Sequence record: DRR723986_6244
DNA length: 34,929 nt
Strand: one strand, 5' to 3'
A program made the translations under genes and the position numbers. The stretch's first letter is position 1; each line of letters opens with the position of its first letter. Below the pieces are notes generated by a model, which made no database searches, had not been told where the DNA came from, and worked only from the letters and a program-made list of their open reading frames with translations. This document shows positions 1,311 to 6,749 of this stretch, piece after piece.

Positions 1311-2450
1311 TCAGCGAAGTCGGAAGAAGCAGAACCGCTCGACCAGCCGCAAAAGGTCTTTCTGCGAGCGGCAGTTGGCCTTGGCCATTGTATTCTTCAA
1401 GTGTTTTCTTGCGGTGTCGAGTGAGATGCCGCGCTCAATGCAATGTTGCGACAGATCCTGCCCGGACGCGATTGCGCCAACCACAAGCTCCTCGGAAGGT
1501 GTCAGGCGGAACAATCCGGCAAATTGCCTGATCTCCGATGGGTCCGGCCCATGCTGCATGTGGAGCGGAATACACAGGACAGCCAGCATCGAACCGCCAC
1601 CACCGATCCCTCCGGGAACGGGCAGGAAGCGGACCCCGATCTGATGATCCGTTGTATCGGTGAGCGTAACGGTCTCGCCCGAAGGAACGCTCGAACGGAA
1701 GTGAAGGGCGTCCAGTGCAAGTGCAAGACGCCGGTTCAAGGCCCTGTCCCGGAAGACAAGACCCCGGCTGCTCATTTTCAGAACCTGTTCTTGCTGCAAG
1801 GCTTCGGCCTGATCGTTCGCGAAGACGATCCTGCCCCCTGCGGTCACCAGGATTATCCCTTGCCCGCGTGCCGTCAGGAGATTGCCGAGCGTTTCCGTAT
1901 TCGCTTTTGCTTCAGCCAGTGTCAGATGGATCCGCAAGGCCTGCCGGGTATGGCCGAGGATCATCTGCTGAGCCTCGAGCTGATCTTTTTCCCAAGGCTC
2001 CTCTTCATAGAGAGAAAAGCCAAGCCAGCTCAAGCGATCGGGCATGGCGAGCTGGGCGCCAGTTACCTCGTAGAGTTCGAAAGGCAGCAGGTTCTCGTGA
2101 TAGACGGGACTGGCCATCCGCTCTTCGTCGGTCCACAGGAGATCTCCGTGCAGAACTCTTCCGACCGGTGCATCCAGGATGCGCGGATACCTGACATCAA
2201 GCTCTGCGTAAGTGCCCATGTAATCCTTGTGAAAATCAGGATCCATGCGAACCGTGACGAAGAGGTCGTCCCCCGCATCTGTCAGGTTGTTGGAGAAGAA
2301 GTGACAACTCTTTGCCTGGAGGGCGTCGGTCACCTCTTCCATCGCCGGCTTCCAGAGCTCCGCCGTAACCGCGGCCTCATAAAGGCCCCGGATGGCAGCG
2401 TTCAGTCTTGCCTGATCGACTTTCACCTTGCCCTCGCCGAATGGTTGCAC
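1311..2450 (-). CDS. Transcriptional regulator with N-terminal sensor (GAF/PAS-like) region and C-terminal LuxR-type HTH
   Basis: C-terminal LTPSE...GISLDTARKHLKNTMAKANCRSQKDL HTH; PAS-like GRIVFANDQAE; GTG start at 2450, or at 2426 after GAGG. Confidence 0.85.
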   Translation of the reverse strand: MQPFGEGKVKVDQARLNAAIRGLYEAAVTAELWKPAMEEVTDALQAKSCHFFSNNLTDAGDDLFVTVRMDPDFHKDYMGTYAELDVRYPRILDAPVGRVLHGDLLWTDEERMASPVYHENLLPFELYEVTGAQLAMPDRLSWLGFSLYEEEPWEKDQLEAQQMILGHTRQALRIHLTLAEAKANTETLGNLLTARGQGIILVTAGGRIVFANDQAEALQQEQVLKMSSRGLVFRDRALNRRLALALDALHFRSSVPSGETVTLTDTTDHQIGVRFLPVPGGIGGGGSMLAVLCIPLHMQHGPDPSEIRQFAGLFRLTPSEELVVGAIASGQDLSQHCIERGISLDTARKHLKNTMAKANCRSQKDLLRLVERFCFFRLR

Positions 2451-2545
2451 CCTATGACGTATATTCTGCCAAGATCTATTTCAAGAATGTTATGTAGATC
2501 ACAAAGTTTTCGCGTTCGGCGACTTTTCGAATTCCAACAAACAAC

Positions 2546-2574
2546 AAAAAAGCCGCCGGAGTTATCCGGCGGCT
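2546..2574 (-). terminator. Rho-independent terminator of hss
   Basis: 10-bp stem AGCCGCCGGA/TCCGGCGGCT followed by a U-tract on the minus strand, 27 bp after the hss stop. Confidence 0.85.
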
Positions 2575-2601
2575 ATATTCACCAAAGGTTGCCCTTTTTC
2601 G

Positions 2602-4572
2602 CTATCGCACCAGAATGTTACGGAATTGCCAGGGATCCTTGGTGTCGATATCTTCCTTGTAGAAGCCAGGCCGCCCCTCCAGAGGTGTCCAGTCCGTATA
2701 ATAGCCCTTGACCGGGCCAAGATACGGCAGCTGGATTTCGAGGCAGCGCTTGTAGTCCATCTCGTCCGTCTCGACGATGCCCGCTTCCGGGTTCTCCAAC
2801 GCCCAGACCATTCCGGCCAGAACGGCCGAAGTCACCTGCAGACCGGTCGCGTTCTGATACGGCGCAAGGTCCCGGGCCTCCTCGACAGACAGCTGGGAGC
2901 CATACCAATAGGCGTTTTTCTTGTGACCGTAGAGCAGAACACCGAGTTCATCGATGCCGTCCTGCAGTTCACTTTCGTCGAGAACGTGTAGCGTCTCCTG
3001 AACCTTTCCTGCGGAGCCGAACAGTTCATGCAGCGAGAGCACGGCTACGTTCGCCGGATGATAGGCATAGTGGCATGTCGGGCGGTAGCTGACCTTCTTG
3101 CCGTCGCTCACGGAGAAGTAGTCGGCGATGGAGATTGCTTCATTGTGCGTGACAAGGAAGCCATATTGCGCGCCTGGCGTCGGGCACCAGGTCCGCACAC
3201 GGGTGTTGGCGCCCGGCTGTTCCAGATAGATCGCTGCCTTGCAGCCTTTCTTGTGCTTCTTGGCATTCGCAGGCTTCCAGGTTTCATGCGTGCCCCAGCC
3301 GAGTTCCGCAGGCTGGAAACCTTCGGAAAGGAAACCTTCCACCGACCAGGTGTTCCAGAACTCGCCGAATGGTTTCGGTTCTTTGGCCCGCTGAGTGTCA
3401 CGCTCGGCAATATGGATGCCTTTGACACCCACCTTTTTCATCAGTTTGGCCCAGCCCTTCTGGCTGGACGGTTCCTTGAACTTGACGCCGGTATCGGTCG
3501 CGATATCCACCAGCGCCTTCTTCACGAACCAGGAGACCATGCCGGGATTGGCGCCGCAGCAGGAAACTGCCGTAGTACCACCAGGATGTTTCTTCTTTTC
3601 GCGTCGTACGGCCTCACGAAGTGCATAATTGGTCCGGTCAGCTGCCGTTGCGGTGTCGTCGAAGTAGAACCCCGGCCAGGGTTCGACCACCGTGTCGATA
3701 TAGAGCACGCCAAGCTTGCGGCAGAATTTCATCAGGTCCAGCGATGAAGTGTCGACAGACAGATTAACGACAAACCCCTGCCCCTCGCCCTCCGTGAGCA
3801 AAGGCGTGAGTATGTCCTTGTAGTTTTCAGGCGTCAGGGCGACTTTTTCGAACCGGTATCCCCGGTCGGTCACCAGCTTGGCATCACTGTCAACCGGGTC
3901 GATGACGGTAAACCGGCTCTTGTCGAATTTGAAATGACGCTCGATCAGCGGCAGCGTTCCCTTGCCGATGGAACCAAGACCGATCATCACAAGCGGGCCG
4001 GTGATTGTTCCGTGAACAGCGCCAGCTGATGCTGTGGAACCTGCTTTCGGTTCAGCGGCCTTCGAAGCTGCTGCCTTCGGTGCAGAAGCTTTAGGAGCGG
4101 CTGTCTTCGCCTTAGACGCATTCGCTGCTTCCGGTTTCACCGGAGCCGCCTTTTTGGCAGCCGGCTTGGCCGCAGTCTTGGCCTCAGTCTTGGTCTGCGT
4201 TTTTGCAGCAGCAGGTTTCGGTGTCCTGCTTGTCGAAGGTTTTGTGGCCGCCACAGACTTTGCGGGCGCTTTCGCGTCAGCTGCCTTGGTAGCGGAGGTT
4301 GTCGGCTTTTTGGTTGCGGGTTTCGCAGCAGCAGGTTTTGCAGAGGCCGTTTTGGCCGGAGATTTTGCAGCAGCCGGTTTGGCGGGCGCAGCCTTGGCTG
4401 CTGCTGGCTTCGCCGACGATGATTTGGCAGGTGTCGAATTGGAGCTTGCCGGCTTTGCCGATGCGGCTCTGGAAGCGGACGTACGCGATGTGGTCTTGCG
4501 CCGTGTTGTTGGCTTTGCGGCAGCTTTTACCGCCGGCTTCTTCGGCGCACCGTCGTTGGTGTCGTCGGTCAT
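2602..4572 (-). CDS. hss: Homospermidine synthase with ~185-aa Ala/Lys/Pro-rich N-terminal extension
   Basis: GPLVMIGLGSIGKGTLPLIERHF Rossmann start, CCGANPGMVSWFVK, NTWSVEGF, PAELGWGTHE, NATGLQV, DPWQF; ATG at 4572 with GGAG SD at 4581-4584. Confidence 0.95.
   Translation of the reverse strand: MTDDTNDGAPKKPAVKAAAKPTTRRKTTSRTSASRAASAKPASSNSTPAKSSSAKPAAAKAAPAKPAAAKSPAKTASAKPAAAKPATKKPTTSATKAADAKAPAKSVAATKPSTSRTPKPAAAKTQTKTEAKTAAKPAAKKAAPVKPEAANASKAKTAAPKASAPKAAASKAAEPKAGSTASAGAVHGTITGPLVMIGLGSIGKGTLPLIERHFKFDKSRFTVIDPVDSDAKLVTDRGYRFEKVALTPENYKDILTPLLTEGEGQGFVVNLSVDTSSLDLMKFCRKLGVLYIDTVVEPWPGFYFDDTATAADRTNYALREAVRREKKKHPGGTTAVSCCGANPGMVSWFVKKALVDIATDTGVKFKEPSSQKGWAKLMKKVGVKGIHIAERDTQRAKEPKPFGEFWNTWSVEGFLSEGFQPAELGWGTHETWKPANAKKHKKGCKAAIYLEQPGANTRVRTWCPTPGAQYGFLVTHNEAISIADYFSVSDGKKVSYRPTCHYAYHPANVAVLSLHELFGSAGKVQETLHVLDESELQDGIDELGVLLYGHKKNAYWYGSQLSVEEARDLAPYQNATGLQVTSAVLAGMVWALENPEAGIVETDEMDYKRCLEIQLPYLGPVKGYYTDWTPLEGRPGFYKEDIDTKDPWQFRNILVR
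4021..4545 (-). repeat. Low-complexity KPAA/KPAAAK repeat region encoding a histone H1/AlgP-like tail
   Basis: Repeats such as AKPAAAK, KAAP, KPAAKK in frame with hss; about 34 Lys and 5 Arg in the first 185 aa; no aromatic residues. Confidence 0.9.
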
Positions 4573-4789
4573 ATGCGTAACTCCAATCCTATCCGATATG
4601 CCGCCCACATCGCTTCCAGAGGGTCCGGCCCGTTGGGAAATCCTTCAAACAGCAAAGCGCACTTATTGCGCCTTTGTTAGGTGTGGCTGGTTTCTGCAGG
4701 AATTTCAAGTCTTCTCGATGAAAGCCCGTTCAAGGAAAGACAAATGACCGTCTCAACCCTGTTATTTTTAAACAAACAAGCCTGTGCTT

Positions 4790-4830
4790 AAAAAACAAGA
4801 GACGGCGGCGAAAAACTTCGCCGCCGTCTC
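4790..4830 (-). terminator. Rho-independent terminator after odc-GNAT
   Basis: 14-bp stem GAGACGGCGGCGAA/TTCGCCGCCGTCTC followed by TTGTTTTTT on the minus strand. Confidence 0.85.
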
Positions 4831-4843
4831 CAAGTCTAAAGCT

Positions 4844-5395
4844 TCAAATTGCTTGCGAAACCGAGAAGACGTCTTCCCGGGCAGCCGGCACTGCCATCGG
4901 ATCCAGTACACCGGATGCCGAAAGCACACCCTCCAGGCCGTCAATGTGCCCTGGAGTGAACTCCAGTGCGAGGAAACGGTGATAGTCCACCGGTCCCGGC
5001 ATCCCGACCTTGTCGAGAAGGCCCGCAGCAAAACCGAAGCGGGTATAATACGGCTGATCGCCGACCAGGATCACGGATCCATGGCCAAGCACGGCAGCCT
5101 GGTTGAGGGCGTGCCGCATCAGGCGGTCTCCGACCTTCAGACCCCGGCAAGCCGGATCGACGGCAAGGGGTCCGAGCAACAGGCTTTGCGAGCCGTTGCG
5201 GTCCGCCACAGACCAGAGCCTTACCGTGCCAACGAGCTTGCCAGATTCGTCGATTGCAGAAAATGCGAAGACCGGAAGCCGGCCTTCACGCAGACGCTCG
5301 GAGGTTTTCCTGAAGCGGTCCTCGCCGAAACAAAGGTCAAGCAGACCCTCGCGGGCGCCAGTGTGATCCGGCGCCTCGTCCACAATATCAATCAT
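4844..5395 (-). CDS. GNAT family N-acetyltransferase (YhbS-like)
   Basis: LLLGPLAVDP..RGLKVG acetyl-CoA motif, VILVGD.PYY.RFGF; ATG at 5395 with GAGG SD overlapping the odc stop. Confidence 0.9.
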   Translation of the reverse strand: MIDIVDEAPDHTGAREGLLDLCFGEDRFRKTSERLREGRLPVFAFSAIDESGKLVGTVRLWSVADRNGSQSLLLGPLAVDPACRGLKVGDRLMRHALNQAAVLGHGSVILVGDQPYYTRFGFAAGLLDKVGMPGPVDYHRFLALEFTPGHIDGLEGVLSASGVLDPMAVPAAREDVFSVSQAI

Positions 5396-5405
5396 GGCAC
5401 TTGCC

Positions 5406-6536
5406 TCAGATGACGAAGGACGCCAGCGGCGCGAAGCCGTTGAAGCCGACCGTGGAATAGGTCGTGGTGTAGGCACCACAAGCCTCGATCAGCACCTTGT
5501 CGCCAATGGACAGGCTCACCGGCAGTTCGTACGGCGTCTTTTCGTAAAGAACGTCCACGCTGTCGCAGGTCGGGCCGGCCAGCACGCAAGGTGCGGTGGT
5601 GTCGCCGTCGCGCGGGGTGCGGATCGGATAACGGATCGCCTCGTCCATGGTTTCGGCCAGGCCGTGGAACTTGCCGATATCGAGATAGACCCAGCGCACT
5701 TCGTCGTTTGCGGATTTGCGGGAAATCAGCACGACTTCAGCTTCGATCATGCCGGCATTGCCGACCATGCCGCGGCCGGGCTCGATGATGGTGGACGGCA
5801 GACGGTTGCCGAAGTGCTTGCACAGCGCCTGGAAGATCGCTTCGCCGTATGTCGAAACGCCCGGGACGTCCTTCAGGTAACGGGTCGGGAAGCCCCCACC
5901 CATGTTGACCATTTTCAGTTCGATGCCGCGGAGCGCCATTTCCTGGAAAACGCCTGCTGCCATGGCGAGAGCGAGATCCCACGCCGTGAGGTTGGCTTGC
6001 TGGGAGCCGACATGGAAGGAAACGCCATGGGCGACAAGGCCGAGCCGGTGCCCGTGTTCGAGCACGTCGGGCGCCATTTCGGGGTCGCAGCCGAATTTGC
6101 GGGAGAGCGGCCACTCGGCGCCGACGCCGTCGCACAGGACGCGGCAGAAGATTTTGGAGCCAGGGGCAACGCGGGCGATTTTTTCAACTTCTTCGACGCA
6201 GTCGACGGCGAAGAGGCGGACGCCATACTGATAGGCACGCGCAATATCCTTCTCCTTCTTGATCGTGTTGCCGTAGGAAATGCGGTCGGCGGATGCGCCG
6301 GTTGCCAGCACCATTTCGATTTCGCCGACGGAGGCGCAATCGAAGGAGGAGCCGAGGCTTTCCAGGAGCGACAGGATTTCAGGTGCCGGGTTGGCTTTCA
6401 CTGCGTAGTAGACGGAGGTGTCCGGCAGGGACTTGGCAAAAGCTTCAAAGTTGTCGCGCACGATGTCGAGATCGACAACAACGCACGGGCCATCTTCGTC
6501 ACGTCGGCGGAGGAAATCGCGGATACGGTCGCTCAT
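5406..6536 (-). CDS. odc: Ornithine (lysine/ornithine) decarboxylase, fold-type III PLP enzyme
   Basis: YYAVKANP (PLP Lys), FDCASVGE, KFG, SFHVGSQ, MGGG, IEPGR, GPTCDS.D, GAYT; ATG at 6536 after GAGGGGAG. Confidence 0.93.
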   Translation of the reverse strand: MSDRIRDFLRRRDEDGPCVVVDLDIVRDNFEAFAKSLPDTSVYYAVKANPAPEILSLLESLGSSFDCASVGEIEMVLATGASADRISYGNTIKKEKDIARAYQYGVRLFAVDCVEEVEKIARVAPGSKIFCRVLCDGVGAEWPLSRKFGCDPEMAPDVLEHGHRLGLVAHGVSFHVGSQQANLTAWDLALAMAAGVFQEMALRGIELKMVNMGGGFPTRYLKDVPGVSTYGEAIFQALCKHFGNRLPSTIIEPGRGMVGNAGMIEAEVVLISRKSANDEVRWVYLDIGKFHGLAETMDEAIRYPIRTPRDGDTTAPCVLAGPTCDSVDVLYEKTPYELPVSLSIGDKVLIEACGAYTTTYSTVGFNGFAPLASFVI

Positions 6537-6749
6537 TGGGGGGCTCCCCTCTTTCTCAATCTCAGCCGCAGGCGCGCTAATCCTTGGCGTGCGCGCTGCG
6601 TTCACGTCGCAGGGTGCTGCAATGCGCACCGGGCCTCCCCCGGGATGGAACCGGAGGCCGGGTTGACTGCAGCGACGGTTGGGCTATGCGACTGCCAAGC
6701 AGCACAAAGCTTTCCCGCGTCGGGAAATGCCGTTGATTGGATCGGGAGA

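Follow-up and report, generated by a model that had tools for sequence, protein, structure and literature searches.

Tails rich in lysine, alanine and proline are already known on several bacterial proteins. The KPAA domain of AlgP from Pseudomonas aeruginosa is described (PMC9239181) as 154 aa long, with a net charge of +55 and 25 perfect repeats, and as a mutational hot spot; AlgP binds DNA in vitro, localises to polyphosphate (polyP) granules, and is needed for granule spacing. The tail of PhaF is homologous, and both tails are disordered, polycationic, 150–200 aa long, built of KPAA-type units, and hypervariable in length. A similar Lys/Ala/Pro composition is found in the C-terminal domain of histone H1 and in chlamydial Hc2 (PF07382). 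Low-complexity tails of this composition also occur on folded enzymes, namely mycobacterial Ku, whose PAKKA tails modulate DNA binding (PMC3553676), and topoisomerase I, at its C-terminus. Both of these proteins act on DNA. The subject of this study is a tail of the same kind on homospermidine synthase (HSS), which acts on a small diamine instead. Its gene, hss, lies on the minus strand of a 34,929-nucleotide stretch from sequence record DRR723986_6244, referred to below as the window.

Bacterial HSS enzymes of known structure include those of Blastochloris viridis (BvHSS; 4PLP/4TVB), P. aeruginosa (6Y87), and Legionella (2PH5). Their solved chains are 471–480 aa long and begin a few residues before WPVHG/VYHRIDGP, in keeping with the statement in a first-pass annotation of the window that characterised bacterial HSS proteins have ~480 aa and no such tail. 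BvHSS is a dimer in which the first 4 residues could not be traced, and the active site is located inside each subunit (PMC4725965). In the reaction an aminobutyl group passes to an amine. The path to the active site is an acidic 'ionic slide' (Asp94, Glu117), and the catalytic residues are Glu117, Asn162, Glu210, Trp229, Glu237, His296, and Glu298 (PMC8489232). The protein encoded in the window has the same domains, its core aligns with these enzymes from end to end, and a dimer is expected; it differs by 185 extra N-terminal residues, a number that reaches 415 in relatives. We are almost certain that the gene encodes the cell's single HSS, a 70-kDa protein composed of a catalytically intact, complete core and a 185-aa disordered polycationic tail, which arose as triplet repeats expanded in frame between the MTD... 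of the ancestral N-terminus and the conserved WPVHG motif. By analogy with AlgP, PhaF, and H1, we give close to an even chance to the further proposal that the tail acts as an electrostatic tether of HSS to DNA, RNA, or polyP.

Catalytic core and translation of the tail

The catalytic core begins at V186 (nt 4017), as the first-pass annotation had placed it. Two Pfam domains cover most of it: Sacchrp_dh_NADP at residues 195–336 (122.3 bits; cut-off 25.1) and Sacchrp_dh_C at 340–623 (121.7 bits; cut-off 31). A phmmer search aligns residues 186–656 with chain residues 8–478 of B. viridis HSS 4plp_A (E 6.4e-227), and also aligns the core with the P. aeruginosa and Legionella enzymes. All seven catalytic residues of BvHSS are kept. 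Their numbering follows an offset of +180 inferred from the 4plp_A alignment together with a 2-residue tag; E390, W409, E417, H476, and E478 were read directly, and E297 and N342 were taken from invariant columns over 26 sequences. Judged from its sequence, the region of residues 186–656 is a complete bacterial HSS, and NAD-dependent homospermidine formation from putrescine is predicted.

The core is the second part of a single open reading frame (ORF) of 656 aa that starts at the ATG at 4572 and stops at 2602–2604 (Table 1). Upstream of this ATG the frame stays open as far as a GTG at 4608, and the sole Shine–Dalgarno (SD) sequence belongs to the ATG. No ATG intervenes between codons 1 and 196. 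An internal GTG start, the alternative raised against a fused tail in the first-pass annotation, is disfavoured: the GTG codons at 107, 145, and 195 all lack a preceding SD sequence. The central claim of that annotation, an HSS fused to a polycationic tail of ~185 aa from an SD-preceded ATG at 4572 with no Met before the core, is thus one on which ORF, Pfam, phmmer, and composition agree. At the local base composition, the chance of a 209-codon open frame is ~0.001. Of the 58 genomes of the genus in which the gene is present, 49 have an open frame of at least 600 aa; in two of the other nine, the gene lies at a contig end.

Translation of the tail was assessed by comparing start sites in the window and 46 related loci; 41 of these 47 belong to the window's genus, the window included. 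The genus (Roseibium/Labrenzia) and the family (Stappiaceae) are named here after the names that databases give to the closest proteins. Exactly one SD-preceded start (GGAG/AGGAG, spaced 6–11 nt) lies upstream of the core in 40 of the 41 same-genus loci, and L003 has one extra, weak internal GTG candidate. In the same-genus loci the SD-preceded start opens a peptide of the form [M/L/V]TD[DE]..G.PK. The start codon stays at the same position while its identity changes: it is mostly ATG, TTG in five loci (L026, L027, L031, L033, and L036), and GTG in L030. The first 11 residues follow the pattern M-T-D-[DE]-[ST]-N-G-G-A-P-K; the protein keeps this pattern while the DNA varies at synonymous sites.

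The pattern of change within the tail is that of a coding sequence. When the window is aligned with its four closest relatives, each of the 15 gap runs has a length divisible by three. Between the window and L001 there are 16 substitutions, distributed over codon positions 1, 2, and 3 as 2, 0, and 14. The ratio of nonsynonymous to synonymous substitution rates (dN/dS) in 11 close pairs is 0.07–0.62 in the tail, mostly ~0.2, and 0.01–0.04 in the core. Contigs from RNA libraries differ from the window by strain indels of +30, −12, +60, and +60 nt, both +60 values being inferred from overlapping contig pieces, and all four fall within two tandem arrays. Another contig from a transcriptome run, 2175 nt long, matches exactly at 2644–4787 and spans the tailed gene and its leader between two minus-strand terminators. 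From a raw-read RNA run (X23), no reads were placed. Because of the single SD-preceded start, the conserved N-terminal cap, the start-codon swaps, the in-frame indels, the low dN/dS, and the contigs spanning tail and core, the tail, as far as sequence can tell, is translated and is not a chance-open leader.

In NCBI/UniRef, several entries from the genus have 461 aa and begin with MIGLGSIG, as if the protein started at Met196 and the upstream open frame were a leader. The probability that the tail is untranslated in this way is close to negligible. In none of the genus loci parsed does an SD sequence precede codon 196, and a start at Met196 would remove I190, G192, and V195; these three do not vary among 26 HSS sequences, and in the alignment each is matched by an ordered residue of 4PLP. 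The conserved frame, start codon, SD sequence, and cap, together with the in-frame indels and the third-position bias of substitutions, argue in the same direction.

Public entries P0026, P0027, P0033–P0036, P0038, P0039, and others have the 461-aa form, starting at the internal Met of VMIGLGSIG within the first Rossmann strand. They likely represent a systematic start-site error due to the low-complexity tail. Annotations that start inside the Rossmann fold merit correction, and expressing the annotated version would yield a truncated enzyme.

Composition, growth and distribution of the tail

Residues 1–185 comprise 63 A, 34 K, 22 T, 22 P, 21 S, 5 R, 4 D, and 3 E; the 39 basic residues against 7 acidic ones give a net charge of +32 and a pI of 10.95, compared with 6.5 for the core. 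F, W, Y, L, I, C, and a second M are absent. KPAAAK occurs four times and KPAA five times. The residue counts in the first-pass annotation (34 K and 5 R versus 7 D/E) and the KPAAAK repeats were reproduced exactly. The tail is predicted to be disordered from its composition and from a charge-hydropathy calculation, which groups the tail with disordered chains and the core with folded ones.

Long tails from 38 loci (135–415 aa) have in common their physical properties and scant alignable sequence (38 tails of at least 100 aa). Net charge per residue lies between +0.16 and +0.24 in all 38, hydrophobic residues number 0–4 per tail, and acidic residues are almost excluded; A makes up 23–49%, P 10–15%, and K+R ~20%. 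Successive K/R residues are 4 or 5 apart in 68% of intervals, compared with 19% in shuffled tails. KPAA is present in all 38 (337 in total) and KPAAAK in 34; S/TPKK motifs were not found, SPKK being present in none of the 38. Selection therefore keeps the physics of the tail and not its sequence, that is, the tail is under compositional purifying selection.

The site at which the tail grew can be read from the ends of the proteins. Tail-less relatives begin with MTD/MSD-WPVHG and tailed ones with MTD[DE]...tail...WPVHG. Because tailed and tail-less proteins begin and rejoin at like motifs, we take the tail to have arisen within the ancestral N-terminus, as repeats expanded in frame, and not by recruitment of an upstream start. 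Its length changes by triplet slippage.

HSS is encoded in 92 of the 132 genomes of the nearest genome's family, essentially as a single copy. The parsed tail is 5 aa long in two genera (MTDWPVYG, MSGWPIYG), 32–52 aa in four, and 196–266 aa in one. In the window's genus it ranges from 57 to 415 aa and has at least 135 aa in 36 of the 38 parsed loci. A K/A/P tail is also present in L035, which lies outside the strict motif; the upstream stretch of L048 (g7) is Arg-rich and of a different kind, and two g2 loci (L047, L049) were left out of tail parsing. On a core-gene tree, whose root is unreliable, tail length is structured by clade, with one clade of 308–415 aa and another of 135–278 aa. The long tails of the second genus stand apart on this tree, so the tail either expanded more than once or was lost in places.

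Outside the family, 401 genomes of the order were sampled, and 188 of them have HSS. Six long open frames running into HSS from upstream, the longest retrieved (578–785 aa), were rejected as tails: they are chance-open and Arg-rich, and the true start is directly at MxxWPVHG. Among the 150 best global representatives of 50% clusters, nine carry the longest extra sequence, and none of these nine is K/A/P-rich. The tail thus appears to be a feature of Stappiaceae within the samples searched. This is the outcome of the comparison of HSS lengths across family and order that had been suggested for the window: long tails lie within the family, and none is present among the outside samples examined.

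These data also bear on a reading in which the tail is translated but binds nothing specifically. It could be a low-complexity stretch that slippage lengthens and the cell tolerates, or it could serve as an 'entropic bristle' or an aid to solubility. Its composition would then be kept only because hydrophobic or toxic variants are selected against and because of how GCN/AAR/CCN repeats mutate. In most bacteria a tail-less HSS works, and the length of the tail, 5–415 aa across the family, differs even between near-identical strains. Its dN/dS is about ten times that of the core, the indel sites are tandem arrays, and the longest tails contain recent DNA repeats. Such a reading is nevertheless rather unlikely, for dN/dS is well below 1, the charge density and the near-exclusion of acidic residues hold throughout the long tails, and K/R spacing is far from random. 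Moreover, the tail nearly doubles the protein cost in some species, and yet it is kept in the large majority of the genus genomes counted above.

Tail and core also differ in codon usage. GCT and GCA account for 37 of 63 Ala codons in the tail versus 8 of 35 in the core, AAA for 16 of 34 versus 11 of 37 Lys codons, and ACA for 10 of 22 versus 3 of 33 Thr codons. Of the codons that the first-pass annotation had listed as favoured in the tail, GCT/GCA and AAA are so, and CCT is not enriched (5 of 22 versus 7 of 26). The GC content at third codon positions (GC3) is 0.52 in the tail and 0.71 in the core of the window; over 38 loci the means are 0.57 and 0.77, consistent in direction. When codons were resampled in 12 loci, the actual, even usage gave fewer exact 12-mer repeats than core-type usage in 10, the exceptions being L002 and L031. 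In the longest tails (L024, L031) exact 12-mer repeats exceed the expectation from their own usage. These results hint at even codon use as a possible limit on exact DNA repetition. Limits on DNA repetitiveness, mRNA structure, and repeat origin are candidate causes of the low tail GC3 in the 38 loci and the window.

A systematic codon difference of this kind could also reflect a regulatory handle on the amount or activity of HSS, in which the tail would be a disordered site where proteolysis starts, a translation-rate sensor made of hundreds of unusually chosen Ala/Lys/Pro codons, or an autoinhibitory pseudo-substrate for the acidic entrance of the enzyme. Protein-level conservation of the cap and the ionic slide of HSS fit such a role. 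We consider it improbable. Neither a degron nor a stalling motif or docking site was identified, and the 38 tails contain no KKK runs and few PP motifs.

A possible tether to nucleoid, RNA or polyphosphate

The tail resembles those of AlgP and PhaF in being K/P/A-rich, disordered, polycationic, and of hypervariable length with KPAA-type units. It differs in that it is N-terminal instead of C-terminal, is carried by an enzyme, has more Ser/Thr, and is less regular (5 KPAA in 185 aa versus 25 perfect repeats in 154 aa). Binding by the HSS tail is suggested by analogy. Some homologous HSS tails (P0007, P0025, P0045) carry precomputed matches to PF07382 or PF02095.

In the nearest genome, a pattern coding for KPAAAK has 7 matches, 5 of them in hss, and 0 in the control. 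The other two were rejected, one being a single KPAAAK in a long unrelated ORF and the other lying in no K/A/P-rich ORF. The pattern AKPAA..K has 16 matches, 5 in hss, and 7 in the control. Coding repeats of KPAAAK/AKPAA cluster only at hss in this genome, and a query with the tail found only hss among the 150 of 735 first-look candidates that were scored. The sole other H1-like signal is a match of PF07382 to the C-terminus of TopA, below the cut-off. A search of Protein Atlas with the tail gave a best score of 0.79 to unnamed clusters and was uninformative.

As a separate observation, the topoisomerase I of the nearest genome (L069, G001:C1:50808-53927, ORF ending at 1662) ends in a Lys-rich tail of ~45 aa (KKKAAAKKPAAKKTATKK...).

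Under the tether proposal, the HSS dimer would present two tails per enzyme with a total charge of ~+64, because the BvHSS dimer has a free N-terminus. With a K/R every 4–5 residues in KPAA(A) units, these tails may bind nucleoid DNA, RNA or ribosomes, or polyP. Such binding would place, or sequester, a polyamine-making enzyme on the polymers that polyamines neutralise. The tail itself would add macromolecular positive charge, and homospermidine would compete for the same polyanion sites. Tethering was likewise proposed in the first-pass annotation, with condensates and release by the enzyme's own product as further suggestions, all of them resting on analogy.

Several points weigh against the tether. 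Small polyamines diffuse fast, and so it is not obvious that a local supply would help much. Within the genus the tail differs 3-fold in length, strains differ as well, and some genus members have only 57–73 aa, which fits a weak or purely compositional constraint. The contigs from RNA libraries are supportive but do not prove transcription or translation. A Pfam search of residues 1–185 gave no family at E ≤ 0.01, PF07382 (Hc2) included, and in a comparison of the tail with proteins of 30–359 aa from a set of 5.8 billion none of the 8000 scored candidates reached E ≤ 0.001, although low-complexity filtering may hide relatives. With neither detectable homology nor a Pfam match, the tail is tied to AlgP, PhaF, and H1 by composition alone. 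The resemblance to AlgP would thus lie in a possible mode of action and not in family membership.

The tether could be extended to a feedback loop on polyamine synthesis, to which we attach a slim probability. The tail would then be a built-in sensor of un-neutralised polyanion. As long as DNA, RNA, or polyP has free phosphate charge, both tails would be bound and the enzyme would work; accumulating homospermidine would displace them. The lysine side chains of a freed tail, which mimic half a diamine, could occupy the acidic substrate entrance at the ionic slide. This occupancy would throttle activity, or else the freed tail would expose the protein to proteolysis. If this were true, an enzyme of metabolism would directly gauge the charge state of the polyanions in the cell.

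Neighbouring genes and significance of the fusion

The order of elements on the minus strand is ornithine decarboxylase (ODC), a GNAT acetyltransferase, a terminator, hss, and a second terminator (Table 1). Based on the sequences, ODC, GNAT, and hss appear to form a putrescine-to-homospermidine locus.

Table 1. Features of the hss locus, in window coordinates
Feature	Position	Strand	Basis or remark
hss coding sequence	2602..4572	−	656 codons + stop, tail + HSS core
HSS catalytic core, residues 186–656	2605..4017	−	Pfam, phmmer, catalytic residues E297, N342, E390, W409, E417, H476, E478
N-terminal K/A/P/S/T tail, codons 1–185, net +32, predicted disordered	4018..4572	−	composition, charge-hydropathy, frame conservation, dN/dS
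Conserved N-terminal cap MTDDTNDGAPK, codons 1–11	4540..4572	−	position-wise conservation over 38 long tails; synonymous DNA variation
Shine–Dalgarno GGAG, 8 nt before ATG	4581..4584	−	sequence; counterpart GGAG/AGGAG in genus loci
15-nt tandem array, 4.3 copies, encodes KPAAA repeats	4319..4380	−	Tandem Repeats Finder (TRF); strains differ here by +30 and +60 nt
12-nt tandem array, 3.3 copies, in tail	4154..4193	−	TRF; site of 12-nt strain deletion
Intrinsic terminator after hss, 10-bp stem, T run	2551..2574	−	terminator scan
7-bp hairpin/palindrome AGGCGCA-ATAAG-TGCGCTT in hss leader, downstream of CTTGAA block 4709–4704	4655..4673	−	genus conservation
Strong terminator, 15-bp stem, ends ODC-GNAT unit; upper limit of hss unit	4798..4831	−	terminator scan
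GNAT acetyltransferase, probable start ATG 5398	5398/5479..4844	−	starts few bases from ODC stop
Ornithine decarboxylase	6629..5406	−	Orn_Arg_deC_N, E 1e-55

The GNAT gene lies 270 nt upstream of hss, and the nearest solved relatives of its product are uncharacterised acyltransferases (4rs2 and 4zbg, E ~5e-9). This proximity, together with the transfer of an aminobutyl group to an amine by HSS itself, underlies a further alternative, in which the lysines of the tail are acetylated by the neighbouring GNAT or aminobutylated by HSS and so form a tunable charge store. We regard this as very improbable. The GNAT gene closely follows ODC and is cut off from hss by the strong terminator. It is upstream of hss in 45 of 56 loci, among them the tail-less L041, L046, L064, and L065 and two loci of other families; loci without it may reflect short flanks. 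Because GNAT also adjoins tail-less hss, it is tied to the polyamine locus and not to the tail, which weakens the link between tail and GNAT offered in the first-pass annotation. As for aminobutylation, an active site inside each subunit would be hard to reach for a backbone-bound lysine.

In the leader of hss, the pairing of the hairpin varies across the genus (C-G, U-G, U-A, and two C-A), and the element may serve as an operator or, as a 5' hairpin, in stabilisation or regulation. Rfam searches of 2400–5000 returned only sub-threshold matches, which fall on the hss terminator and not on the leader hairpin. A sigma-70 scan of the minus strand gave no convincing promoter.

Downstream of hss, two long ORFs overlap on opposite strands, at 1311–2450 (−) and 1443–2711 (+), and have no Pfam/NCBIfam match. 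The former, of 379 aa, is conserved at 86–98% in only 3 of 56 loci, those of the closest strains, and looks strain-specific.

Long-form sequences are already public, for example a 662-aa entry named homospermidine synthase. In the literature searched, which did not cover subscription journals, no paper was found that ties HSS to an N-terminal extension or lysine-rich region, and a 2026 paper on the homospermidine pathway in the Journal of Biological Chemistry does not mention 'N-terminal', 'extension', 'lysine-rich', or 'fused'. With HSS and Lys/Ala/Pro tails both familiar, it is their fusion and its distribution for which no description was found in that literature. Here a synthase of small polycations carries a polycation that is itself a macromolecule, similar in kind to those organising nucleoids and polyP or polyhydroxyalkanoate granules. 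Experiments on tail length can draw on the tails of 57–415 aa that occur naturally in the genus and on those of 5–52 aa in its sister genera. The fusion thereby makes testable, in a culturable marine genus, whether polyamine synthesis is linked, in space or by charge, to the polymers neutralised by its products.

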